This document shows, in pieces, positions 23,749-36,609 of a stretch of DNA of 64,000 nucleotides. This DNA is from an uncultured Alphaproteobacteria bacterium. GTDB lineage: Bacteria > Pseudomonadota > Alphaproteobacteria > Rickettsiales > JALZUV01. The notes beneath the pieces were generated by a model. That model saw only the letters and a program-made list of their open reading frames with translations. It was not told the DNA's origin and made no database searches. The DNA lies in NCBI GenBank assembly GCA_963837025.1, contig CAWILT010000001.1:273155-337154 (forward strand), in the 5' to 3' direction. The position numbers and the translations under genes were made by a program. How positions within the stretch are numbered: position 1 is the first letter of the stretch; each line of letters starts with the position of its first letter.

Positions 23749-25011
23749 ATGGATAAAAATAATCAATTAGAAAGTGAGAATCTAGAGTTTTTGGCATTAC
23801 CCCCTCAACATAAACTAGATGCCGATGAATTTTATGCACTAGATAGTGATGGCAGCACTGAGGGAGTAATCAGCTCCGGCAGCTTAGGTTATGCAAGCTT
23901 ACAGGCCTCGCAAACCGATGCTGTGTTTAATTATACAGCGCAAATTGCCTATAGTGTAAGCGAACCCATGCTGACTGAAATGCCAATCGCAAAATCAACT
24001 TATTCTACGTATTATGAATCTGCGGCTGTAACAGCATCATCAGTGTCGCCAACTAAATTAGATTTTGGAGTTCAAAACTCACCGCAAAATATAACTGATA
24101 AAATAGGCTCAGATTCAATAAACTCACCAAATATAAGCCAACAAACATTAAATAACGCAAATGCAAATACTAATGCGCTAGCTGAAATAACCAGTGCTAG
24201 CACTAGTTTTGGCAACTCATCTTTCTTAAATCCTCAAGCTAGCAATAGCTTTGTTACCAATGAAGATAATTCAATGGGTGATACCATTAAAAATATCAAT
24301 ATAGAGCAAAATAACACCCTAAATATTGAACAAATTTTTCAGCAAATTGAAAATTTTGGGGATGTTATAAATACATTAAACCAAACGCTGATAACAATCA
24401 CTCAAAATACAACGCAAAATATTTACAACACGACTGATTTAACACAAATTAATCAAATCATTATCGACAATATTTATCTTGTTAATAATCAAATTAATAT
24501 ATTGAATAATTGGGTCAATAATTTCAGCTCTAATTATGGTGGTGAGGGTCTTACATTAGATCTATCAGTATTATTTGATCTTGATATTTTGAACGTCACC
24601 AATATAGATTTTGATACAGTAATTTCCTTAACCCAGAATAATTATTTAACTGAGAATTTTGAATTTATTGTAGACGGTAAATTTAATCTTAACTTGCCAA
24701 TAGAACAAATTATTAACGTTACTTATTCAGCATTTGATATAATTAAAACAGAGCTTCTTAATGAAATCACGAATATTAATCTTTTCCATTCTGACACTAA
24801 CGAAAATGATACTGATTTAGTAGTTTTAGCTGACATTGATCTACCACCTATTTTAGATGTAGATATCGATAAGGAAGTTAATCTCGATATTGTCGAGCAG
24901 TTATGCTCCCACAGCATAAGCTATATGTGTATGAATCTAGGTTGCAAGAGAACGATGTCGAAACTAAAGGCATGGTCAGCTCTGGTAGTCTTGTTATACA
25001 AGATCACATAA
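23749..25011 (+). CDS. hypothetical Asn/Ile/Thr/Gln-rich low-complexity protein
   Basis: 420-aa ORF with no recognisable domain. Low-complexity core (NIEQNNTLNIEQIFQQIENF..., NNQINILNNWVNN). The last ~35 codons may be read-through into a second gene (see 24903-25079). Confidence 0.5.
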   Translation: MDKNNQLESENLEFLALPPQHKLDADEFYALDSDGSTEGVISSGSLGYASLQASQTDAVFNYTAQIAYSVSEPMLTEMPIAKSTYSTYYESAAVTASSVSPTKLDFGVQNSPQNITDKIGSDSINSPNISQQTLNNANANTNALAEITSASTSFGNSSFLNPQASNSFVTNEDNSMGDTIKNINIEQNNTLNIEQIFQQIENFGDVINTLNQTLITITQNTTQNIYNTTDLTQINQIIIDNIYLVNNQINILNNWVNNFSSNYGGEGLTLDLSVLFDLDILNVTNIDFDTVISLTQNNYLTENFEFIVDGKFNLNLPIEQIINVTYSAFDIIKTELLNEITNINLFHSDTNENDTDLVVLADIDLPPILDVDIDKEVNLDIVEQLCSHSISYMCMNLGCKRTMSKLKAWSALVVLLYKIT

Positions 25012-25163: not shown

Positions 25164-25889
25164 CTAATCCATTGTAACTATAGTATTGCAATTATTAAAA
25201 TTACCAGAGAAGGTAAGATCATAATTATTCTCACCACCTGGCGCCAAACAGCCTGCTGAATTCCTTGAAGTCAAAATAACCCTCCCAGTGTGTGGCTTCC
25301 CATCATCCATTTTAACATCAATGAAATATGTTGCCTCCTCTAATAAATTGGCCGGCGCTAAGAAAATGAAAACATTATCTTCAATGATTCTTACTATTGC
25401 ACCAGTATTATCTACTAGCCCAGCCCCTCCTTCTGCATATATAGGGTCGTCTAAGACTAATGGCGTAGGAAATCCTGAAGTAACACTTCGTTCGTAATTA
25501 CCTTCAACTAATTCGGCGCGGGATAGATGGTCCCAAAAATAGTACCATTCATCATAATCTATAAGTCCATTACCATTCCCATCGCAAGAACTTTTAGGAG
25601 AACTAGTAGCATTATCGTAGTTAGTACCATTATCGTAGCAGCTAGGCCAATAAGAACTAGCATTTTTTAAGTCGGCTGGAACTGCATTATATTTTAATTT
25701 AAAAGTTTTCACAGCTAGCTTATATTTATTAATATCTGAAACAGCTCCATTATATTCTGCAGCACGAATTAAATCCGATCCAGCAGTTATCCCTCCTATA
25801 ATCAATCCAATAATTACCAATACAATTGATAATTCAAGAAGAGTAAAACCTTGTTGCATTTGTCTATCCATATTTATCCTCATCTCCAA
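25164..25889 (-). CDS. prepilin-type N-terminal cleavage/methylation domain protein (type IV pilin / T2SS pseudopilin-like)
   Basis: MQQGFTLLELSIVLVIIGLIIGG is a class III signal peptide (G|FTLLE). The real start is probably ATG 25859 or 25871. The globular domain contains an EF-hand-like loop, DGNGNGLIDYDE. Confidence 0.75.
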   Translation of the reverse strand: MEMRINMDRQMQQGFTLLELSIVLVIIGLIIGGITAGSDLIRAAEYNGAVSDINKYKLAVKTFKLKYNAVPADLKNASSYWPSCYDNGTNYDNATSSPKSSCDGNGNGLIDYDEWYYFWDHLSRAELVEGNYERSVTSGFPTPLVLDDPIYAEGGAGLVDNTGAIVRIIEDNVFIFLAPANLLEEATYFIDVKMDDGKPHTGRVILTSRNSAGCLAPGGENNYDLTFSGNFNNCNTIVTMD

Positions 25890-27915: not shown

Positions 27916-27922
27916 ACGAAAT

Positions 27923-27968
27923 TTGGTTGCGGGGGTAGGATTTGAACCTACGACCTTCAGGTTATGAG
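27923..27968 (-). repeat. att-site direct repeat: duplicated 3' half of tRNA-fMet (distal island junction)
   Basis: The 46 nt ttggttgcgggggtaggatttgaacctacgaccttcaggttatgag are identical to 36532-36577. On the minus strand this runs from the CCA end to the anticodon loop of the intact tRNA. Confidence 0.9.
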
Positions 27969-28437
27969 TCCTGAGTTATTAAGTAAACAGGAAAGACCAC
28001 AACAAACTATGGTAATAATAACAGGATCTTATGAAGATTTATGCTTCTTGAGTTGCTCTGATTTACTGTCACTTGTTACCCTTTAGTGCCCCATGAGTGC
28101 CCCATAACAAAACCTTAAAGGGTACCACACTTTTTTGAAGAAATCTTCGCTTCATGCTTGTAGGAGAGAGGCAGGAAATGGCTAGGTCTAATTTTGAAAA
28201 AGCCGATACAGCATAATTACATTCAATGAGCGGATGGCCATATAACTTTTTGTGCAGGGTATCTAATGACAGTGCAAGTTTCCAATTACACTACTCAGAT
28301 TCTGATTAAGAGGTAGCTTCCTACGAATATGTTATCGTTAAGTTATAGACACACATTGGAACAATTCAGAAACCAAACAAAGATATACTATTCTGTGACG
28401 CAGATAACCTCTAAATTTAAGCTGGTTTCTGTTTGGT

Positions 28438-29808
28438 CTAAGTTGAGTTTTTACTTTTTGATATTAACAGCATAAGCTTTGCGTGTAGTGTTTCCATCTC
28501 TTCGTAAGCAGTCTGATATTTGGAAGATGAAATAGGAACAGGTTCTGTAAGCAAATTTACCTTGAGCATTGGCATATTAACGTTATCAATTAGAATTTTA
28601 AAGTTGAAGGCTGTCACTTCTGCTTTCGGTGGCAAGTCGTTAACACTTAATGCGCCTACAACAGCTCCTGCGCCTCCGAACATGAGCCCCCCAAGTGCAC
28701 CTGCGCCAAGTTTATCAGTGCTAAATTTGTCATTTTTCATATTTGTTTGTTCTGTGAACTCAACATTTATAATTTCAGAAAAAAGAACTTTATGCTCTTT
28801 TTTTATTGTTATAAATACCAAGCTTTTTTTCATTTCATCAAGAATAATTGCGCCATTACTCCCAACATAAGTATTACAGAGTGATAGGTTCTCAGCTATT
28901 CGCAAATTCTCAGTTTTTGATTTTAGAGTTTGTTGATGAGCTTCAAGAGTTTGTCTTACTTCTTTCTCCTCAGAGTGTTTATCAATGTTTCTGCCTATTG
29001 CAAAAACTATTACTCCTATGAATAGCAACCCTGCGCCAAATGTACCAGTTGCATCAAAGAACATTAGAAAGAAGCCTAATACTATAGCAACAGTCCCTAA
29101 AGATGTTACTACTCCAAAGATATTTTCAGTTTCTTCGCTCGACAAAGGCTTGGTACGAGCTTCAGTATTAAGTTGTTCTAGAGCTGTAAAAATAAACTCT
29201 TCATTATGTCCTTTGCGTCGTAAATACCCTTCATAAGATAGAAGAGAATTATTGCGTTCCCCCATCGGAATTATGCCGTCTTTAAGTTTAGATTTAAAAT
29301 CTTTCTTAGGTTTGCTAAAAAGTAATTTAACTAAAACTTCATCTGGTAAAACTGCAATTCTCATCCCCCAATTTGCAAAACTATATTGCTCCCCTGAAGG
29401 AAGAATAGAGGGAGGGGCGACTACATAGCTTTCCTCTGCCCTTACAACAACACCTTGGCCTAGAACATTAGCTCCTGATTTGATAAATTCATCGGATTTG
29501 AAATATAAATGAAAGCCTCCGTTGCTTGTATTTACTCGCAGAGTCTCAGGTAAATATTCTTTGATCTCTTCATAGCTTTCAAGTCCACCATTACGAGGAT
29601 CAAAGTCGATAACCAAGAGGCCATTACCAGTTCGAACCCCTATATTACTATCAGTACCCATAAACCAAGTTGCTAGTTGCTCAGGTTTTTGAGAGGCATC
29701 CTTATATCCATTACGGCTAGCAGGTGCCTTGCTATTTGGTTTGAGCGGATGAACTTTCAGTCCTAGTGCTGAAAGTTTGAGAGCCTCTTTATAAAGTTTT
29801 TCACTCAT
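28438..29808 (-). CDS. PrimPol-PriCT N-terminal module fused to 2 TM helices and a glycine-zipper C-terminal domain
   Basis: 456 aa. Residues 1-~231 are colinear with the first ~233 aa of the island primase and visibly highly similar (VIDFD, GGFHLY, YVVAPPSI.PSGEQYSFANWG, MGERNNSLLSY.G.LRRKGH). Then come TM segments VAIVLGFFLMFF / GLLFIGVIVFAIG, and later LGAGALGGLMFGGAGAVVGAL. GAGGGGG RBS lies upstream of ATG 29808. Confidence 0.7.
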   Translation of the reverse strand: MSEKLYKEALKLSALGLKVHPLKPNSKAPASRNGYKDASQKPEQLATWFMGTDSNIGVRTGNGLLVIDFDPRNGGLESYEEIKEYLPETLRVNTSNGGFHLYFKSDEFIKSGANVLGQGVVVRAEESYVVAPPSILPSGEQYSFANWGMRIAVLPDEVLVKLLFSKPKKDFKSKLKDGIIPMGERNNSLLSYEGYLRRKGHNEEFIFTALEQLNTEARTKPLSSEETENIFGVVTSLGTVAIVLGFFLMFFDATGTFGAGLLFIGVIVFAIGRNIDKHSEEKEVRQTLEAHQQTLKSKTENLRIAENLSLCNTYVGSNGAIILDEMKKSLVFITIKKEHKVLFSEIINVEFTEQTNMKNDKFSTDKLGAGALGGLMFGGAGAVVGALSVNDLPPKAEVTAFNFKILIDNVNMPMLKVNLLTEPVPISSSKYQTAYEEMETLHAKLMLLISKSKNST

Positions 29809-29919
29809 GATGAGGCCCCCTCTTCAATATTATGTCTTTCAACCCACGCGAGCCGCTTCCGACAATCCAAGTATAGTCTTCGCCCTAGACGTACAACTTC
29901 TGAATTGGTTGATTCCATA

Positions 29920-30114
29920 TCACATCCCACATTTCTCTACCGCTACATACGTGCAGTATTCGTTTACCGACATATCATTTCGACTTTCGCTCGACTTACT
30001 AGCTTGTTGCCTACTACATTGAGAGTATGCTTCCTTTTGGCAGGTGCTTAATGCGTAGACTGCAGAGCTTGCTAACATTGTAGCTGCGCTAATAACTAAA
30101 ACTATTTTTTCCAT
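29920..30114 (-). CDS. small secreted Cys-rich protein (hypothetical)
   Basis: 64 aa. Signal-peptide-like MEKIVLVISAATMLASSAVYA, 4 Cys in the mature part, and an AGGA RBS 8 nt upstream. Confidence 0.45.
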   Translation of the reverse strand: MEKIVLVISAATMLASSAVYALSTCQKEAYSQCSRQQASKSSESRNDMSVNEYCTYVAVEKCGM

Positions 30115-30487
30115 ATTAATTCCTAAATTAAACTTCTGACCGGGGAGTTTATAAAATCTACTTTGTGAGCGGTTCCTACTGACCTTCAGCCCGAAAGCCT
30201 GTTCTATACGTCAGTAGCTCCCCGACCTAAAGTCGAGGAGTGCTGTTGCGGTTGCACAAAACCGCACAAAGTAAGAGGTTATAAAGCCCCTGAGCAATTG
30301 ATCAGATTGCAACAGAACAGGATTGTTAATTATAGTCAATGGATAAGGAGTACAAAATGGAGTCAAAGGTTTTAAATTTTATATAGGTTGTTTGGACAGG
30401 CTGGACACTTCACTAAGAAGTATATAAAATAAGTCTTCTAAGATAAGTATTTTAACTAGTTATTGTCCAACCTGTCCAAAAAAACCA

Positions 30488-32578
30488 CTAAGGCGTAGCC
30501 CATCTAATTTTATACTTATCATCAATCTGCTCTCTAGGTTTTATTGATAAGCCAATTCGACCACGGTTACCTTGCTGTTTATCGCTACAATAGCCACGCT
30601 TTCCAAACTCTTTTCCTAAATTTGTATCTGTTAAATATGGTGCATCATAACTATGATCGGAATAATATTTATAAAATTTCTGAAGTGCGTAGTTTGGGAG
30701 AAAACCATTTGAACTTTGAATAAAAAACTCCTCAATAAAATGCAAAAAGTAATCACTATCACTACGATATTCCCGACTTGCCTTTGTAATGATTTCTGGC
30801 TCCTTGACTCCCCCATTCTCCAAAACACGCTTTAAACCTTCCAACATCCAATTTAGGATACCTGAAAGTTCTTTTGGTTGACTTAGCTTTTCAAGTAAAC
30901 GATTGTCACGCTGTGCTTCAGTAATTTTTACAGGAAAGTTAATTACCTTAACTCGGCGCCAAATACCATCATCCACCCCACTAATAGCAATATGATGATT
31001 AGCCGAGATAAAAACTTTGTATTTTGGTGTATATTCAAAATGTTCTTTATAGAGCTGACGAGCCACAATCTTCTCCCCCCCAGTAATAGTTTTCACTATG
31101 GACTCATCCAACGCTCGATCCTTATTTGGTTCGGAAGTACTTACAAAGCGCTTACCTGAGAGTCGTGCTATATCATTACGAACCCTATCTGAGCTGCTTT
31201 GTAATAACGTACTAGCCTCCATGTGCGCCGCATACTCACCGAGAACCGCAAAAATAGTCTCAGTCAAAACAGATTTACCATTTCCACCGTTACCATAGAG
31301 AGTATAAAAAGCCTGTTCACTAATATCACCTGTCAAACAAAGCCCTAAAATCTCTTGTAGATAGTCTCGTACCTCCCAAGAAGGTAAAATAGTTACCAAA
31401 AATTTATCAAATTCCGAGCATTTTGCCTTTAAATCGTAGATTACAGAAGAAAGCATTGTCGTTTTTAACTTTGGATCATGCGGTAACAAACTAAAATTTT
31501 TCAAATCTAGTAAGCCATTTTGAACATTCAAAAGGTAATCGTTGCAATCTAACTCTCCATATTCTACGGCCAAAGCAGAAGAAGAGAGCTTAATTGTCGC
31601 ATCAATTCGTGTTTTAGCTTGTGAACTTTTTGCGTGTTTGACGAGTTCTTTCTTATAATTCTCATCTGTATCAACTGCTTTTGCCTCTTCATACATTCGC
31701 AAAGCTAATTCTTTAGCTAACTCTTGAACCTTATTCAGCGTATCAAGTTTAAAACGCTTCCCATCCCATACGTACCAACTTCCATTCACATAAATAAGTT
31801 GTTCTGAATAAGCTTTTACAAAACGCTGCGAGTTCCCCAAATCACTAAGCAGCTCATCACTAGGATCATAGCGCATAACGCTATTAACGATATTTTCAAC
31901 TTCTTCATCTGATAAAGGTTCAGTGCAAGCTTCTGTATTGAGTTGCTCTAGAGCCGCCAGAATAAAGTCTTCATCATGCCCTTTGCGCCGCAAAAAACCT
32001 GCATATGATAAGAGCGAATTATTACGTTCTCCCATTGAAATTTTACCATCTTTAAGTTTCGCTTTAGAAGGCTTCTTAACTTTATTGGAGATTAATTTTT
32101 CTAAGATTTCATCTGGCAAAATTGCAATTTCTACTCCCCAATTTGCGAAACTGTATTGCTCTCCTGAAGGATGTATAGAAGGGGGCGCTACAACATAGCC
32201 TCCATCTGCTTTAACATCGACGCCCTTTCCTAAAACATTGACTCCACACTTCACAGTCTGATTGCATTGATAATAAAGATGAAAACCACCATCACTAGTG
32301 TTCACCTTCAAAGTTTCTGGTAAAGTCGCTTTAATCTCATCAAATGTTTCCAAACCACCATTCCTAGCATCGAAGTCAATAACTACTAATTCGCCGCCAG
32401 TTCTCACCCCAACATTGTTCTCAGTATTACAAAACCATTGATTAAGTTTAACTGGGTTATTTGATGCATCTTTAAAACCATGCTGGCTTGATGGAACTTT
32501 TAGCCTAGGTTTAAGTGGATGAAGCTTTAAGCCAAACTTTTGTAATTTAATAATATCTCCGTGAAGTTTACTAATCAT
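30488..32578 (-). CDS. bifunctional primase-polymerase / D5-P4-family replicative helicase
   Basis: 696 aa. N-terminal PrimPol (VIDFD, GGFHLY) + PriCT-like (GERNNSLLSYAGFLRRKG), then a D5_N-like middle region. Walker A is YGNGGNGKS and Walker B-like is FVSTSEP. Confidence 0.85.
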   Translation of the reverse strand: MISKLHGDIIKLQKFGLKLHPLKPRLKVPSSQHGFKDASNNPVKLNQWFCNTENNVGVRTGGELVVIDFDARNGGLETFDEIKATLPETLKVNTSDGGFHLYYQCNQTVKCGVNVLGKGVDVKADGGYVVAPPSIHPSGEQYSFANWGVEIAILPDEILEKLISNKVKKPSKAKLKDGKISMGERNNSLLSYAGFLRRKGHDEDFILAALEQLNTEACTEPLSDEEVENIVNSVMRYDPSDELLSDLGNSQRFVKAYSEQLIYVNGSWYVWDGKRFKLDTLNKVQELAKELALRMYEEAKAVDTDENYKKELVKHAKSSQAKTRIDATIKLSSSALAVEYGELDCNDYLLNVQNGLLDLKNFSLLPHDPKLKTTMLSSVIYDLKAKCSEFDKFLVTILPSWEVRDYLQEILGLCLTGDISEQAFYTLYGNGGNGKSVLTETIFAVLGEYAAHMEASTLLQSSSDRVRNDIARLSGKRFVSTSEPNKDRALDESIVKTITGGEKIVARQLYKEHFEYTPKYKVFISANHHIAISGVDDGIWRRVKVINFPVKITEAQRDNRLLEKLSQPKELSGILNWMLEGLKRVLENGGVKEPEIITKASREYRSDSDYFLHFIEEFFIQSSNGFLPNYALQKFYKYYSDHSYDAPYLTDTNLGKEFGKRGYCSDKQQGNRGRIGLSIKPREQIDDKYKIRWATP

Positions 32579-32801
32579 TATTGCCCCCTAGAAAATCTTT
32601 TCCATTACTTGCAATAATCCAATCAAACCATTTTTGTGGATCGATATAAATGCGCCTGCCAAGCCTTAGTAAAGCACCAGATTCCTTTAAGCCATTTTCA
32701 GATTCATTGAAAATCAGATGTCTAATTGCTCCTTCAGTAAATGCCGTTTGCGTTGCTGCGAACTGCCTAATAGTCACAAGTTGGTTTTTAACTTCAATCA
32801 T
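32571..32801 (-). CDS. excisionase/AlpA-like HTH DNA-binding protein
   Basis: 76 aa. VTIRQFAATQTAFTEGAIRHLI...LLRLGRRIYIDPQKWFDWI resembles the HTH_17/AlpA pattern. Overlaps the primase start by 8 nt. Confidence 0.6.
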   Translation of the reverse strand: MIEVKNQLVTIRQFAATQTAFTEGAIRHLIFNESENGLKESGALLRLGRRIYIDPQKWFDWIIASNGKDFLGGNND

Positions 32802-32903
32802 TGTTGATTCCTCTCATTGCCGCTTAATTGCGATAGAGAAAAGAATGACAGTTAAATAAAGAGGACAAATAGTAAATATAGGAATCCTAAAAAATTGAAT
32901 TGT

Positions 32904-33512
32904 CTACTCTTTAAAGTCGACACTTTTATATAGTGTTTTTATTTTAAGAAACTTTCTAACAGTTTCGATGTACTTATCTTTTTCAGCACTATTACTTAAA
33001 TGAGCTAAAGTATGTTTAGTGAGCTCTTCTTTAAGAACTTTTCTTTTTTCTTTATTCCAAATTTTTTGCAAGTATTCGATTGCGAACTTATTTGCGCTCT
33101 CTTTTTTTCTATCAGTAAGCCAAGATTTAGTGTTTTTGGGTAAAGTAAAGTTTATAACAGCTCTAAATTTATTAGAGATTTTGCTATGGACTTCAAACTG
33201 ATTCTCAATAGCCCAAGAAACAAAAACAGCAGGGTCTAAAACAAATTCAAATTTTTTAGGGCGCACTGAAACTAAAAACTTTTTTAAGATTCTCAGTTTT
33301 TTTGACTTTATATGAAGTTCTGCAATCTCTAATTCAGATTGTAAAATCGTAAGACTGCAAATTTCTCCATCATCACTTAGGCTATAGGGGCAAGTTCCCT
33401 TAATTATAGAGAATGCCTCGGAAATAGTCCATTCCGGTAATGATAGCCAGTACTCAAGCCCTTTTATTTTGTCGAACTCGTGTTTAATGTAAGCGTCACG
33501 AACTCTAATCAT
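32904..33512 (-). CDS. hypothetical protein (island, between int and alpA-like)
   Basis: 202-aa Lys-rich ORF. Its start overlaps the integrase stop (ATGA at 33509-33512). No recognisable domain. Confidence 0.5.
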   Translation of the reverse strand: MIRVRDAYIKHEFDKIKGLEYWLSLPEWTISEAFSIIKGTCPYSLSDDGEICSLTILQSELEIAELHIKSKKLRILKKFLVSVRPKKFEFVLDPAVFVSWAIENQFEVHSKISNKFRAVINFTLPKNTKSWLTDRKKESANKFAIEYLQKIWNKEKRKVLKEELTKHTLAHLSNSAEKDKYIETVRKFLKIKTLYKSVDFKE

Positions 33513-34570
33513 ACCCCAAATACTTTCTCATTCATACGACTCACAACTGAAGCAGTATGAGATTCGGATAGATGGGCGTAGCGTTTGACCATCTGCAGCG
33601 TTTTATGACCTAACACCTCTGCAATTTCAGCCAGTGTTGCACCATTCATTGCTAAATATGAGGCGCAAGTGTGGCGTAAGTCGTGAAAACGAAAATCTTC
33701 AATCTCAGATTTCTCTACAGCGTTCTCCCATGCGGTTCGAATATCCATTGGCTGGCACTTGCTACTTGCAGGGAATACAAACGAACAATCTAATCTTCTT
33801 ACTTTAGAGTGTGTTTGCATTAACTCTAAAGCATGACCGCGCAAGGGAAGGGAGCGGCGTTCATTGTTCTTTGTTTCAAGCAGTGTTATCATACCGCGAG
33901 TTAAATCTACTTGCTTCCATTCCAAACTAAGGAGTTCGTTTTTTCGCGCCCCTGTGCTGATGGCAAGAATAGTGATCATGTATAGATAAGGGTTTTCGCT
34001 TTGCTTGCAGGTTTCGAGTAGCGCGTTGCGCTCTTCTTCAGATAAAAAGCGAACTCGACCTCTTGATTCAGGGTATTTCTTGATTTTGCGGATTGGATTG
34101 GCTTCTGTCCATTCCCACTCATTTACTGCGATTGTGAATACATGACCTAAAGCGGTAGTGTAGCGATTGGCGGTGGTTGCACCAATCTCTTTACCATATT
34201 GGTTTTTGGCACCTACGAGCTTGTTGCGGTATTCTGTAACAAGAGCAGCACTAACATCAGCTAAAGTGTACTCACCTAGCTTCTCTTTCCAGTATTTGAG
34301 ATAGTGGCGTTGGTTGGCTGTGCTTTTCTGTTTTAGTGCCAGCACCTCCTCACCATAGCGGTCAATCAACTCGCCTAAAGTGTGCCTCTTAGCTTCAGCA
34401 GTTTTAAAGTGCCTGCCTTCTCGAATAGCTGATTCAGTAGATTGTGCCCATTTCTTCGCATCCGTAAGGCGTTTGAAGCTCGCGCTTTGGCTAGGATAAC
34501 CTTTAAGCCGAATTTTTACACGATATGACGTGGAGCCATCGTCTAATTTGCGCTTTTCTATTGATGCCAA
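33509..34570 (-). CDS. int: tyrosine-type site-specific integrase
   Basis: 353 aa. SAM-like N-domain; catalytic region with R (TGARKNELLSL), HDLRHT, LGH and the nucleophile Tyr in VKRYAHL. Confidence 0.9.
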   Translation of the reverse strand: MASIEKRKLDDGSTSYRVKIRLKGYPSQSASFKRLTDAKKWAQSTESAIREGRHFKTAEAKRHTLGELIDRYGEEVLALKQKSTANQRHYLKYWKEKLGEYTLADVSAALVTEYRNKLVGAKNQYGKEIGATTANRYTTALGHVFTIAVNEWEWTEANPIRKIKKYPESRGRVRFLSEEERNALLETCKQSENPYLYMITILAISTGARKNELLSLEWKQVDLTRGMITLLETKNNERRSLPLRGHALELMQTHSKVRRLDCSFVFPASSKCQPMDIRTAWENAVEKSEIEDFRFHDLRHTCASYLAMNGATLAEIAEVLGHKTLQMVKRYAHLSESHTASVVSRMNEKVFGV

Positions 34571-34712
34571 AATATCTCCTCACTTTTATAAATGATAGAC
34601 TAAAATAATCAAAGATAAAGGGCAACGAAATACTAAACACTGAGGTATTTACCTTATAAGCTTATAATATTTCTATTATAAGTTTATTTTTATTAAGATG
34701 GGACAGTGAAAA

Positions 34713-35210
34713 CTATGTTTTTTCATTAAGATTCTTACTAAATTCATTCTGTACTGCAATCAACTGGCTAGTCTCTTCCCAAAAATTTTTCATTGAGTCG
34801 ATACCTTTTGTGGAGTCAATTATATTAACCACATCCTTTAACTCTTTGGAGTATTCTTCAAGCAGTGCTTTCTTATTCTTCAAAATGTCAATTGGCAGCT
34901 TCTTCATAGCTTGTCGTTGAGATACCAGATTTTCTCTAAGGGTTTGCTGTGTAGTAAAGCTTGCTTCCCCTCTGTTCAAAAGTTCCATTGAGAATGCCGT
35001 AGCGTAAATATGAAAATCAGAATTAGTCTGCAAAAATAGTTCAATACTTTTTTGACGTTTCTCTGAGTTAGAGTTGATTGAGTGCGACAAAATTTCTACG
35101 GTGAAATTGAAAACTATGGTTAAAACGAACAATGCCAAAATCTGCCAGCGCGGCGTTTCAGTAGTTTTCCAAAAAACGGTTTTGGATTCTTGCTGTGAGC
35201 CTGCTTCCAT
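34713..35210 (-). CDS. hypothetical single-pass membrane / coiled-coil protein (cargo gene B)
   Basis: 165 aa. One TM helix (WQILALFVLTIVFNFTVEIL) followed by a helical Lys/Glu-rich region. Starts 5 nt after the stop of the 378-aa ORF. Confidence 0.55.
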   Translation of the reverse strand: MEAGSQQESKTVFWKTTETPRWQILALFVLTIVFNFTVEILSHSINSNSEKRQKSIELFLQTNSDFHIYATAFSMELLNRGEASFTTQQTLRENLVSQRQAMKKLPIDILKNKKALLEEYSKELKDVVNIIDSTKGIDSMKNFWEETSQLIAVQNEFSKNLNEKT

Positions 35211-35215
35211 GTTAT

Positions 35216-36352
35216 CTAAGATCCTTCGCTAATTTCAATTTTTGAGTTTAAACCAGTAGAATTAGTAACGCTATTCTTAATGATACATAATTCTTTCCAT
35301 TTTTGGTAGCCCATCATTTTTAAATCCTCGAGCACCTCTTGCTTTATATCGGCGTTACAGGTTTTAGCTATAGTGCTGTTATCCAATGAATTTATAATCT
35401 CAATATCATCTAACACCCCATCTTCAGCAAAACCCCACTCTGGTGCTAACGCAAAAAATATTGCTAAAGCTAGTGGTATAAGGTTTTGACCATATAAGAT
35501 AATTCTGCCGGGAGATTGTATTTCGATTCTTTGGTCTGGGGCATCACTCGAATGAGTTACTTCCGAAACAATGCTCAATATAGTTTTGTCATTTAAATCT
35601 AAAGCGTTACTTGTATTATGATTTCCGTGAAGAGCTGTAATAAACAGAATAAATAAGTTGAAATTGAAGCTATCTACGGCTGAAAAATCATCGGACGTGG
35701 AATTAAATTTAGAAACAAAATGCTCTTTATAGAAGTACCTATCGAACATTATATCAAGTACATGACTGTAGTGATTATTCTCAATTTGTTGAATAGTTGT
35801 AGGAGTTGAAAACTTTCTTTGAAGCCAAGTCGGAACAGTGTGTCGGGGAACCTTTTTCACCCACTTCACTTTTCTGGCTGGAATTGTATCGTTTTTGTAC
35901 TCATCTGATAGCACATCTAGTGAATATCCATCATCCTCCACGATCCCAAATAGAACGGCTTCATCATAGCTTTTGCTGGGCGCGACTATGATGTCTCCTT
36001 TTTTTATTTCATAGAAAAAATTTCTGATTTTTCCAGCTAATTGTATTTTTCTCTTGGTTGCGCGATAATCCTTTATCCCGCTAATGTTGCGTTCTGGCAG
36101 ATCGTCTGCTTTTGCCCCCTCTAAATACCATTCTTTGATTCGTTCAGACATTGTGACATGCTTAACAAAATCTATATCATTTTGTTTCTTGCCTTTAGGC
36201 AATGAAAAGCCAGGCATATCGAAAAACACAGCGGATTGAGTTTCAAAGTCTGCGTGAAACTTATAACCTTGTCCAGGAAACATGACAAAAATCTTTGTCG
36301 AATCCTCGAAAAATTTAGTTTGAATATCAATAGTTAGTTTGTTTGGACTCAT
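35216..36352 (-). CDS. hypothetical protein (cargo gene A)
   Basis: 378 aa with no family I can name. The central segment FFYEIKKGDIIVAPSKSYDEAVLFGIVEDD...ARKVKWVKKV resembles PUA/EVE-like beta-barrel motifs (weak). Two hydrophobic stretches: FNFNLFILFITAL and LIPLALAIFFALAP. Confidence 0.6.
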   Translation of the reverse strand: MSPNKLTIDIQTKFFEDSTKIFVMFPGQGYKFHADFETQSAVFFDMPGFSLPKGKKQNDIDFVKHVTMSERIKEWYLEGAKADDLPERNISGIKDYRATKRKIQLAGKIRNFFYEIKKGDIIVAPSKSYDEAVLFGIVEDDGYSLDVLSDEYKNDTIPARKVKWVKKVPRHTVPTWLQRKFSTPTTIQQIENNHYSHVLDIMFDRYFYKEHFVSKFNSTSDDFSAVDSFNFNLFILFITALHGNHNTSNALDLNDKTILSIVSEVTHSSDAPDQRIEIQSPGRIILYGQNLIPLALAIFFALAPEWGFAEDGVLDDIEIINSLDNSTIAKTCNADIKQEVLEDLKMMGYQKWKELCIIKNSVTNSTGLNSKIEISEGS

Positions 36353-36532
36353 TTAAATCTCGTTGATACTTGCTATTATTAAGTAAGGCTTAAATAGCCT
36401 GCATATTGTCGTTTGTCGAGATTAGTTGTGTTTTGTTGTCCTCAACTGCCCCATAAGTGCCCCACGGAGGTAAGTCGCCCCATGCCCCGAACCTAAGCCA
36501 TCCTATAAGTTATTGTATTATAGAGGAAAAGT

Positions 36533-36609
<77 letters not shown>

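Follow-up and report, generated by a model that had tools for sequence, protein, structure and literature searches.

The window analyzed here, a stretch of 64,000 nt from an uncultured member of the Rickettsiales, contains an integrative island of 8.6 kb (approximately 27969-36577) located at a tRNA-Met gene (36533-36609, minus strand). The island is bounded by direct repeats of 50 nt that are 98% identical. The proximal att repeat (36528..36577) lies in the tRNA-Met gene, and the distal att repeat (27919..27968) is a copy of the 3' part of this gene. The 24-nt att core is found exactly twice in the window, compared with 0 occurrences expected by chance. Besides the tRNAs, no RNA family was detected in the island with Rfam. 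The island encodes a full-length primase-helicase of 696 aa with the domain order PrimPol-PriCT_1-D5_N-DUF5906 (30488..32578, minus strand), which serves as comparator and is referred to as the long copy. An inverted-repeat region is present at 30388-30483. A PDC-S02-like candidate defence gene is located at one end of the island. At the opposite end, the ORF list contains a chimeric ORF of 456 aa (28438..29808, minus strand), the short copy, the stop codon of which lies 470 nt from the distal att repeat; its placement at the distal cargo end in a preliminary description of this DNA is thereby confirmed. In the same description, the element was called satellite-like. An integrase, the PrimPol/D5 replicase, and the att repeats are present, but no Pfam or PHROG function indicating a capsid or packaging interference was found in the remaining island ORFs of 76, 202, 165, 378, and 64 aa. 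The label integrative island is supported, and the label satellite is tentative.

The ATG start codon of the 456-aa ORF is preceded by the G-rich Shine-Dalgarno sequence GAAGAGGGGG. The frame extends over 456 codons without a stop or frameshift in DNA with 36-39% GC; only 42% of the 17-codon windows in the 64-kb window are free of stops. Positions 27941-36557 are reproduced with 0 mismatches in an independent Logan assembly of run ERR12040027. The junction within the ORF is thus also present in this assembly and cannot be ascribed to one particular assembler. The encoded protein consists of a PrimPol-PriCT region, two TM helices, and a β-rich domain with a Gly-zipper. An AlphaFold2 model based on an alignment of 85 sequences reached a pLDDT of 82 (whole model) and comprises a hairpin of helices followed by five strands, a helix inserted at the Gly-zipper, two further strands, and a C-terminal helix; single-sequence AlphaFold prediction of the whole 456-aa protein yielded a pLDDT of only 34. 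The two hydrophobic helices described earlier are evident from hydropathy (residues ~230-251 and 254-273), and the β-rich segment and Gly-zipper that were said to follow them correspond to the modelled strands and to the Gly-rich stretch at residues 367-389. The existence of the 456-residue gene, of the two hydrophobic helices, and of the Gly-zipper is confirmed.

The N-terminal region contains a Prim-Pol (AEP) domain at residues 9-156 (29341..29784, minus strand; PF09250, 112.4 bits with a cutoff of 22.8), followed by a PriCT_1 domain at residues 176-230 (29119..29283, minus strand; PF08708, 21.8 bits with a cutoff of 21.1). The colinearity previously noted between the first ~231 residues and the N-terminus of the 696-aa protein is borne out by a gapless alignment of residues 1-234 of both proteins with 65% identity (E 3e-106). 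The underlying DNA is also similar, as had been seen by eye. A 300-nt repeat (29116-29415 and 31886-32185) is 76% identical; between the short and long copies, the identity amounts to 61% in codons 5-125 and to 76% in codons 126-231. No homology to the long copy extends past codon 230 (about 29119), where DNA identity drops to chance level. In the long copy, the PriCT_1 match covers profile positions 4-66 of 67, whereas it covers positions 4-57 in the short copy. The PriCT_1 domain of the short copy is thus ~10 profile positions short, and its last helix gives way to the first TM helix.

The Prim-Pol signature is common to the 456-aa ORF, to PrimPol-PriCT-D5 primase-helicases found in phages and integrative elements and represented by the 696-aa neighbour and PHROGs 1156 and 695, and to ORF904 of pRN1. 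Shared features are the DxD of motif I, the GGxH of motif II, the PPS strand, and a PriCT_1 helix bundle, which is cut short in the 456-aa ORF; a small upstream gene overlapping the start codon is shared with the PrimPol-PriCT-D5 loci. The short copy retains VIDFD as motif I and GGFHLY as motif II. D68 and D70 of motif I are present, as in 50 of 50 homologues, and so is H100 of motif II, which is found in 48 of 50. The four signature strings listed in the preliminary description indeed occur in both copies, but a third catalytic motif that was not listed there is lost in the short copy. Codon 121 (29446..29448, minus strand), at the column of the motif III Asp, is GTT (Val), and the corresponding codon of the long copy is GAT. 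Of 50 aligned homologues, the short copy alone has Val in this column, and the other 49 have Asp. The column aligns with D171 of pRN1 ORF904 (1RNI), which is a residue of the catalytic center (PMC2965215). Further changes at conserved PrimPol columns are G127S and H136L, and 27 of 31 conserved columns are kept. D5_N and DUF5906, both present in the 696-aa neighbour, have no Pfam match in the 456-aa ORF, and a tblastn search revealed no helicase remnant elsewhere in the island. Since the D5_N/helicase part is missing, PriCT_1 is shortened, and the motif III Asp is replaced by Val, the protein cannot act as the replicase of the element. Judged from its sequence, the primase stub is presumably catalytically dead.

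The hydrophobic helix 1 (residues ~230-251; 29056..29121, minus strand) starts at the breakpoint, and helix 2 (residues ~254-273; 28990..29049, minus strand) is continued by a long linker helix up to residue ~305; both are found by hydropathy and in the AlphaFold2 model. Across all six frames of the window, a hydrophobicity as high as that of residues 232-248 is reached by only 0.3% of the 17-mers without a stop; these residues are thus too hydrophobic for translated junk. Helix 1 probably belonged to an ancestral two-TM PH_gly_zipper gene. The C-terminal PH_gly_zipper domain (PF27000; residues ~311-456; 28441..28878, minus strand) is composed of a PH-like sandwich and a C-terminal helix. With the C-terminal half alone, nothing significant was found in NCBIfam, PADLOC, or a Pfam copy that lacks the PF27000 model; the family was found via two weak matches labelled PF27000 and a subsequent profile search. 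PF27000 is also the precomputed Pfam label on exactly this 456-aa protein. An HMM built from 149 other PH_gly_zipper members matches the C-terminal part with 90.3 bits (E 3.6e-26), and PHROG 888 is matched with an E value of 2.5e-13. In the PH-like sandwich, the pLDDT of the AlphaFold2 model is above 90. The top Foldseek matches in the PDB are all PH folds, but they are weak (E ≥ 0.09), and matches in BFVD are phage 'Short C-terminal domain' proteins (E 6e-7). The Gly-zipper insert LGAGALGGLMFGGAGAVVGALSV (residues 367-389; 28642..28710, minus strand) is modelled as a helix with a low pLDDT of ~50, and the family-invariant glycines G373, G378, G381, and G385 are all kept. The distance between the end of TM helix 2 (~273) and the start of the zipper (~367) is ~95 aa, with a family norm of 85-100 aa. 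A SHOCT motif, which is common but optional in the family, was not matched at the C-terminus. All architectural elements of a two-TM PH_gly_zipper member are found in residues ~229-456. Among the 85 aligned members, none diverges more than this C-terminal domain. Of 29 columns with a conservation of at least 80%, it deviates at 15, compared with a median of 2 and at most 11 among the others. This strongest deviation from the family consensus indicates that even the membrane module may be decaying. In PHROGs, GP16.7-like proteins are additionally matched weakly by the TM and linker region (E 0.0025-0.008).

The PH_gly_zipper family is large. The profile search at E ≤ 1e-3 retrieved 5561 cluster representatives (clusters at 50% identity), and among the matches listed the members are small stand-alone membrane proteins of bacteria and phages, mostly of 180-290 aa. 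One or two N-terminal TM helices are located ~90 aa ahead of the Gly-zipper; among 149 members, 81 have one TM helix and 35 have an N-terminal two-TM hairpin. Most members are annotated as 'SHOCT domain-containing protein', and several lack SHOCT, e.g., P0064. Phage examples include a 'putative immunity protein' of Geobacillus virus E3, gp21 of Clostridium phage CDMH1, and the proteins of PHROGs 888 and 27819. With the family, the 456-aa protein shares the N-terminal TM hairpin, the helical linker of ~90 aa, the PH-like sandwich, the GxxxG-rich insert, and the C-terminal helix. Unlike the family, it carries a 230-residue PrimPol-PriCT stub at its N-terminus, which was found in no other member inspected. 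In four neighbourhoods inspected, most PH_gly_zipper genes are located among housekeeping genes and not in defence islands; one member in another genome adjoins PIN7 and SduA_C genes. Searches with the C-terminal half of the 456-aa protein gave no match in viral contigs and, by tblastn, none in phage records, where a typical family member did match. A PDB sequence search with the family profile returned nothing relevant.

The primase fragment had been regarded as a partial copy of the island's own primase. This view cannot be maintained. Relative to the neighbouring long copy, dS is 1.2 or saturated, while it is 0.82 relative to the closest relative, P0003. Over residues 5-125, the short copy is 75% identical to P0003 and 58% identical to the long copy. 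With the long copy as outgroup, 9 unique residue changes are found in the short copy and 2 in P0003. The fragment is also preceded by its own 37-codon stub (29805..29918, minus strand), which represents an upstream deletion scar. In its last 23 residues, EVVRLGRRLYLDCRKRLAWVERHN, the stub matches the C-terminal end encoded by the 76-aa gene that precedes the long primase (tblastn E 0.003 within the window), and the position is co-linear. The stop codon of the stub overlaps the ATG of the primase (ATGA), so that the arrangement of the upstream small gene is kept. The saturated synonymous sites, the closer relative in another genome, and the separate stub together identify the fragment as the remnant of a second, related element. 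Residues 1-230 are homologous to the resident primase-helicase, but they diverged from it long ago and are not a recent copy. A third, internal att site was not found with the 24-nt core and up to 3 mismatches, so that the tandem-element model is supported by the gene remnants and by no att scar.

P0003 is a chimeric SIR2_2-PrimPol ORF in a Rickettsiales MAG (GCA_029252805.1) and, with 75-76% identity, the closest PrimPol relative. As in the 456-aa ORF, its PrimPol is truncated and fused in frame with an unrelated domain, which is partial in P0003. P0003 is itself part of a decay chimera located in a mobile or defence-gene region with an adjoining type I R-M system. Unlike the 456-aa ORF, its PrimPol is C-terminal and cut at residue ~127, and the partner is a partial SIR2_2 domain.

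A PrimPol with such a membrane tail had been described as unprecedented, and none was found among the proteins inspected. In a search of 5.8 billion proteins with the whole protein, the only matches besides the query were the primase next to it and PrimPols ending in ordinary helicase tails, and none of these covered more than 52% of the query. About 300 PH_gly_zipper proteins were inspected without finding a PrimPol domain, and no PH_gly_zipper was found among 50 PrimPol matches. Around 84 related PrimPol loci, there was likewise none at a distance of up to 10 kb. On metagenome contigs, 80 PrimPol loci were found, all with at most 43% identity and none with a PH_gly_zipper ORF. A first scan of genome contigs gave no match, and a second one only two distant PrimPols. 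Neither the unfused ancestral arrangement nor an orthologue of the fusion was thus found on genome, viral, or metagenome contigs. At 90% identity, all housekeeping proteins checked from the window are singletons. As the databases hold no close relative of this genome, the absence of fusion homologues is weak evidence. It had been stated earlier that a C-terminal part consisting of a fragment of an unrelated gene, joined by a recent deletion and lacking conserved homologues of the fusion, would speak against a dedicated protein. The C-terminal family is indeed unrelated, the junction lies inside the last PriCT_1 helix, and no homologue of the fusion was found, but the C-terminal part is essentially a whole gene.

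The explanation we favour, with a probability of about 0.58, is that deletions accompanying the decay of a second, older integrative element, located in the same tRNA-Met island, produced the ORF as a chimera. The best reading of the island is a composite in which two related PrimPol/D5 elements are combined at a single tRNA-Met site and the older one has been reduced. The helicase part of the old primase and the start codon of a downstream cargo gene would have been lost in one deletion, which would also have fused the primase remnant and the membrane-protein gene in frame. Scars are found on both sides of the fragment, i.e., the stub of the small gene upstream and the PriCT_1 match ending at position 57 of 67 downstream. 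If produced, the protein would form a helical hairpin with both termini inside, and the primase stub and the PH_gly_zipper domain would both be cytoplasmic. The remaining activity would then be that of the membrane module, and the primase stub may mainly provide a promoter, ribosome binding site, and start codon, which would explain why the frame has remained open despite the lost catalytic residue. The intact AT-rich frame with a good Shine-Dalgarno sequence and the low dN/dS of the PrimPol part (0.12-0.20) are counterpoints to a chimera. The latter value cannot date the fusion because nearly all divergence predates it, and it mostly reflects the history before the fusion. The hairpin makes the fusion topologically coherent and also fits a selected architecture.

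An unlikely alternative, which still deserves some weight, is that the entire ORF is a relic, either silent or without function, in which both halves are decaying, neither the primase stub nor the membrane module has any activity, and the frame is open only as a result of recent deletions. This would agree with the changes D121V, G127S, and H136L, with a C-terminal domain that is further from the family consensus than any of the 84 other members, and with the only close PrimPol relative being located in a likewise broken chimeric ORF. Furthermore, no promoter was identified upstream of the stub, which is accounted for by the deletion of the stub's own upstream region. Such a relic is difficult to reconcile with 456 codons free of stops and frameshifts in a window in which 42% of the 17-codon windows are stop-free, and with a confident fold in which the PH core and the four invariant Gly-zipper columns are kept. 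It is highly improbable that the PH_gly_zipper module is produced alone, with one TM helix, from an internal promoter and Met249, leaving the primase stub as an untranslated or separately translated pseudogene. A promoter-like site (29081..29109, minus strand; GTAACA and TATAGT, spaced by 17 nt with an extended TG) directly past the breakpoint, 17 nt before the ATG of Met249 (29062-29064), provides a weak lead for this, and a start at Met249 would yield the commonest family architecture with one TM helix beginning near residue 5. However, the site has only 9 of 12 consensus matches, 11 such sites were found in the region with 6.4 expected, and there is no clear Shine-Dalgarno sequence before Met249. 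If residues 232-248 are a genuine coding TM helix, as they seem to be, the 'promoter' would also lie in ancestral coding sequence. The reading of Met249 as the ancestral start, combined with an internal promoter, was downgraded because residues 232-248 are far too hydrophobic for chance read-through and two-TM family members are common.

Somewhat less probable than a relic is an exapted fusion, in which an inactive PrimPol-PriCT at the inner membrane senses DNA or a replication protein of a phage or competitor and signals to the PH_gly_zipper domain as an effector of abortive infection or exclusion, or in which it acts as a decoy that is dominant-negative against primases of the same family. 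The intact ORF with its strong Shine-Dalgarno sequence, the coherent topology with both termini inside (hydropathy and AlphaFold2), and the retention of motifs I and II and 27 of 31 conserved PrimPol columns would fit such a protein. So would the position at the cargo end of a mobile island with a PDC-S02-like candidate defence gene at its other end, the family member next to PIN7 and SduA_C genes, and the phage homologues annotated as 'putative immunity protein'. The p16.7 protein of phage phi29 is a membrane-anchored organizer of phage DNA replication. A precedent for a membrane-tethered nucleic-acid enzyme in defence is SNIPE, a membrane-bound anti-phage nuclease, the homologues of which have N-terminal TM, PH, or DUF4428 regions (bioRxiv 10.1101/2025.11.03.685801). 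Both proteins have nucleic-acid-handling domains at the inner membrane and are analogies for the sensor reading only; neither has a PrimPol or a PH_gly_zipper domain, and the likeness is limited to the composition of TM and coiled-coil segments. Against an exapted fusion stand its occurrence as a singleton, a junction that cuts a PriCT_1 helix and not a domain boundary, the deletion scars on both sides of the primase fragment, and the lack of any match in PADLOC-DB 2.0 for the full ORF, its C-terminal half, or two typical family members. The location of most PH_gly_zipper genes inspected among housekeeping genes and outside defence islands also speaks against an exapted fusion. For the sensor/effector role in abortive infection or superinfection exclusion suggested in the preliminary description, no positive evidence was found, and the unrelated C-terminal family, the junction, the missing fusion homologues, and the lost motif III Asp largely argue against it. 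That selection has shaped the fusion into a working sensor or decoy of a new kind, derived from a replication protein, in which a catalytically dead PrimPol-PriCT domain at the inner membrane binds DNA or a replication factor of an invader and triggers the PH_gly_zipper module or is localized by it, is doubtful and, if anything, slightly less probable again.

If the fusion is a selected sensor or decoy, it would represent a new wiring of a replication-protein fold to the membrane and the first functional handle for PH_gly_zipper. If the ORF is a deletion-made chimera, it would represent ordinary island decay and a caution that unique fusions in unsampled lineages with small genomes can be products of deletion. 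The locus draws attention to PF27000, with more than 5000 clusters of bacterial and phage membrane proteins, and it provides a natural test of whether the membrane module can tolerate or exploit a large cytoplasmic N-terminal passenger.

The 456-aa ORF at 28438..29808 on the (-) strand starts with an ATG preceded by a G-rich Shine-Dalgarno sequence. Its residues 1-234 align without gaps with the N-terminus of the 696-aa primase-helicase encoded in the same island (65% identity, E 3e-106, protein alignment), and Pfam assigns Prim-Pol to residues 9-156 and PriCT_1 to residues 176-230. The 696-aa neighbour (30488..32578, (-)) is a normal primase-helicase with the Pfam domains Prim-Pol, PriCT_1, D5_N, and DUF5906. 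Hydropathy analysis of the 456-aa protein indicates hydrophobic helices at residues ~230-251 and ~254-273 and a Gly-rich stretch at residues 367-389. Positions 27941-36557 were recovered with 0 mismatches in an independent Logan assembly of run ERR12040027. Alignment, Pfam domains, hydropathy, and the agreement with Logan thus confirm that a PrimPol module is followed by two helices and a Gly-zipper, as the preliminary description had it, and an assembly artefact can be dismissed to the extent that two assemblies, probably of one data set, permit.

The surrounding 8.6-kb island is bounded by a 50-nt direct repeat (27919-27968 and 36528-36577) copying the 3' part of a tRNA-Met gene (36533-36609, (-)), and the 24-nt core of this repeat occurs exactly twice in the window. 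From the tRNA, the order is a 378-aa ORF (35216-36352, (-)), a 165-aa ORF (34713-35210, (-)), a tyrosine integrase, a 202-aa and a 76-aa ORF, the primase-helicase, a 373-nt spacer, a 64-aa ORF, the 456-aa ORF, and 470 nt of non-coding DNA. The evidence supports an integrative island but does not reach as far as a satellite; none of its ORFs was recognised as a capsid or packaging gene. The 378-aa ORF beside the att site matches the PADLOC candidate defence family PDC-S02 (E 3.7e-11) and PHROG 10226 and has the precomputed label DUF8426; together with the 165-aa ORF it occupies an unusual place between tRNA and integrase, and both may be defence cargo. Directly 3' of the primase-helicase stop, a 20-nt inverted repeat (TTGTTTGGACAGGCTGGACA / TGTCCAACCTGTCCAAAAAA, 30388-30483) with two TGGACA half-sites per arm flanks a 56-nt AT-rich spacer; this motif has no other occurrence within the window and may be the origin of the island or a terminator. 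The 373-nt spacer (30115-30487, (-)) has a folding energy of -113 kcal/mol (z -5.8 versus shuffled sequence), with several GC-rich hairpins at ~30140-30260 and no Rfam match. The 64-aa ORF (29920-30114, (-)) encodes a signal-peptide-like N-terminus and four Cys, and no family match was found for it. The Logan contig ERR12040027_89632 (8617 bp) is exactly the island, with both ends inside the att repeats and its first 8 nt identical to its last 8 nt. De Bruijn assemblers behave in this way at a repeat, but an excised island circle could also be hidden here. Just outside the island, an Asn/Ile/Thr-rich 420-aa ORF (23749-25011, (+)) lies in a stretch of 31% GC and adjoins a 241-aa ORF (25164-25889, (-)) with a type IV pilin-like N-terminus (GFTLLELSIVLVIIG).

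The suggestion that the PrimPol fragment is a copy of the island's own primase is contradicted by its divergence. Between the two copies, codons 5-125 are 61% identical at the nucleotide level and saturated at synonymous sites (pS 0.81), and codons 126-231 are 76% identical with a dS of 1.2. This mosaic divergence (29116-29808 versus 31886-32578) points to recombination or gene conversion between lineages of primases in the past. The closest relative of residues 5-125 among 5.8 billion proteins is P0003, an ORF from the Rickettsiales MAG GCA_029252805.1, with 75-76% identity, whereas the long copy reaches only 58% there. Directly upstream of the short copy, positions 29829-29897 encode EVVRLGRRLYLDCRKRLAWVERHN, which corresponds to the C-terminal end (ALLRLGRRIYIDPQKWFDWIIASN) of the 76-aa gene ahead of the long primase. 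The stop of this stub overlaps the primase ATG as it does at the long copy, but the N-terminal two-thirds of the small gene are missing and same-frame stops lie further upstream; the 64-aa ORF is positioned exactly at this deletion scar. Divergence, the closer P0003, and the separate upstream stub therefore identify the short copy as the remnant of a second, related element with its upstream part deleted.

Downstream, similarity between the copies ends at both protein and DNA level after codon 230 (~29119). The short copy matches the PriCT_1 profile up to position 57/67 and the long copy up to 66/67, which places the break within the domain's last helix. No D5_N or helicase remnant was found elsewhere in the island.

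The primase signature strings named in the preliminary description are retained, whereas the third catalytic motif is not. An alignment of 50 PrimPol domains, that of the 456-aa protein and those of 49 homologues, shows that the short copy retains motif I (D68, D70) and motif II (H100), but it alone has Val at position 121, where all 49 homologues have Asp. In a profile alignment to the solved domain, this column corresponds to residue 132 of the pRN1 prim/pol chain, which is D171 of ORF904; the catalytic centre of pRN1 ORF904 consists of D111, E113, H145, and D171 (PMC2965215). Further lineage-specific changes at columns at least 80% conserved are G127S and H136L. When the long copy serves as outgroup, 9 residue changes are unique to the short copy and 2 to P0003 (Tajima's test, chi-square ~4.5, computed from these counts). 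Judged by its sequence, the Prim-Pol domain is probably catalytically dead and, together with the loss of the helicase, this means that the short copy could not be a replicase.

The C-terminal part belongs to the membrane-protein family PH_gly_zipper (PF27000), which is also its precomputed Pfam label. A profile search of 1.84 billion representatives yielded 5561 proteins at E <= 1e-3, the best 150 of which have 124-505 aa, mostly 180-290 aa. When 149 of these, excluding the query, were used to build an HMM, it scored the 456-aa ORF at 90 bits (E 3.6e-26). Members typically have one (81/149) or two (35/149) N-terminal TM helices, ~85-100 residues between the last TM helix and the Gly-zipper, and often a C-terminal SHOCT motif, whose function is reported as unknown (PMC3581485). 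The 456-aa ORF has the same layout, with a hairpin at ~229-275 and a zipper starting at ~367. An AlphaFold2 model of residues 232-456 (85-sequence alignment, pLDDT 82) predicts a TM hairpin that leads through a long linker helix into five strands, followed by a helix inserted at the Gly-zipper (modelled with low confidence), two more strands, and a terminal helix. The best Foldseek matches in the PDB are all PH folds (Pob3/Spt16, Rtt106, FERM, and the bacterial PH 3b77), albeit weak, with E values of at least 0.09. In a viral structure library, phage 'Short C-terminal domain' proteins match the module with E 6e-7. PHROGs 888 and 27819, annotated as function unknown, match as well, and phage homologues of a typical member carry the annotation 'putative immunity protein' (Geobacillus virus E3) or SHOCT-domain protein (CDMH1). 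Three of four genomic neighbourhoods of family members lie amid housekeeping genes, and one adjoins PIN7 and SduA_C genes.

No second example of the fusion was found among the other proteins of 50 PrimPol hits, whose tails are D5, AAA_25, DUF3631, PriCT_2, or none, in the precomputed or locally computed Pfam content of ~300 PH_gly_zipper proteins, or at 84 related-PrimPol loci with <=10 kb flank each. The window proteins looked up, including the RimK-like protein, a 1068-aa ORF, and the integrase, are all singleton clusters at 90% identity from one 1.1-Mb contig; with the host lineage essentially unsampled, the absence of orthologues of the fusion says little. P0003, the one close PrimPol relative, is itself a chimeric ORF of 405 aa (638-1855 of locus L002, JAQXAR010000051.1), in which a partial SIR2_2 (profile positions 3-98 of 141) precedes a PrimPol truncated at ~residue 127. 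It runs up to the beginning of a type I R-M hsdR gene, itself truncated and of convergent orientation, and has a resolvase fragment on its upstream side. As P0003 is thus a broken chimera too, primase stubs fused to neighbours do arise in these elements.

The 456-aa ORF is best explained, with a probability of about 0.58 for the whole series of events, as a deletion-made chimera from the decay of a second element. Two related int/PrimPol-D5 elements would have come to lie at one tRNA-Met site, and the older, att-distal one would have lost its proximal part by a deletion ending inside the small upstream gene. Subsequently, the helicase part of the primase and the start of a downstream cargo gene would have been lost and the remainders joined in frame. 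The product, if made, would be a hairpin membrane protein with an N-in/C-in topology. The primase stub would provide the translation start, and any remaining activity, whatever its kind, would reside in the PH_gly_zipper module; it is proposed that the frame has stayed open despite the lost catalytic Asp because the stub serves the module in this way. The sequence comparisons establish the deletions, the loss of D121, and the family membership; the order of the events, the membrane topology, and the benefit of the open stub to the module are inferred. Residues 232-248 (GVVTSLGTVAIVLGFFL) have a hydrophobicity matched by only 0.3% of stop-free 17-mers in six frames of the window. Translated non-coding DNA is an unlikely source of this segment; more likely, it served as TM1 in an ancestral PH_gly_zipper gene with two TM helices, from which the deletion took the start codon. 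Internal initiation at Met249, giving a one-TM product, ranks below such a two-TM gene and is very improbable, since the promoter-like site ahead of it (29109-29081) is a weak match and no clear SD precedes Met249.

A fully dead relic is rather unlikely; it is supported by the C-terminal domain, which diverges more than that of any other of the 85 members compared. Still somewhat less probable is an exapted sensor or decoy fusion. The sensor/effector reading of the preliminary description is improbable, though it would be interesting, if true. While the observation made there stands, its interpretation is supported in part. The fusion is unique in the searches but marked by decay, not design; both halves come from known families.
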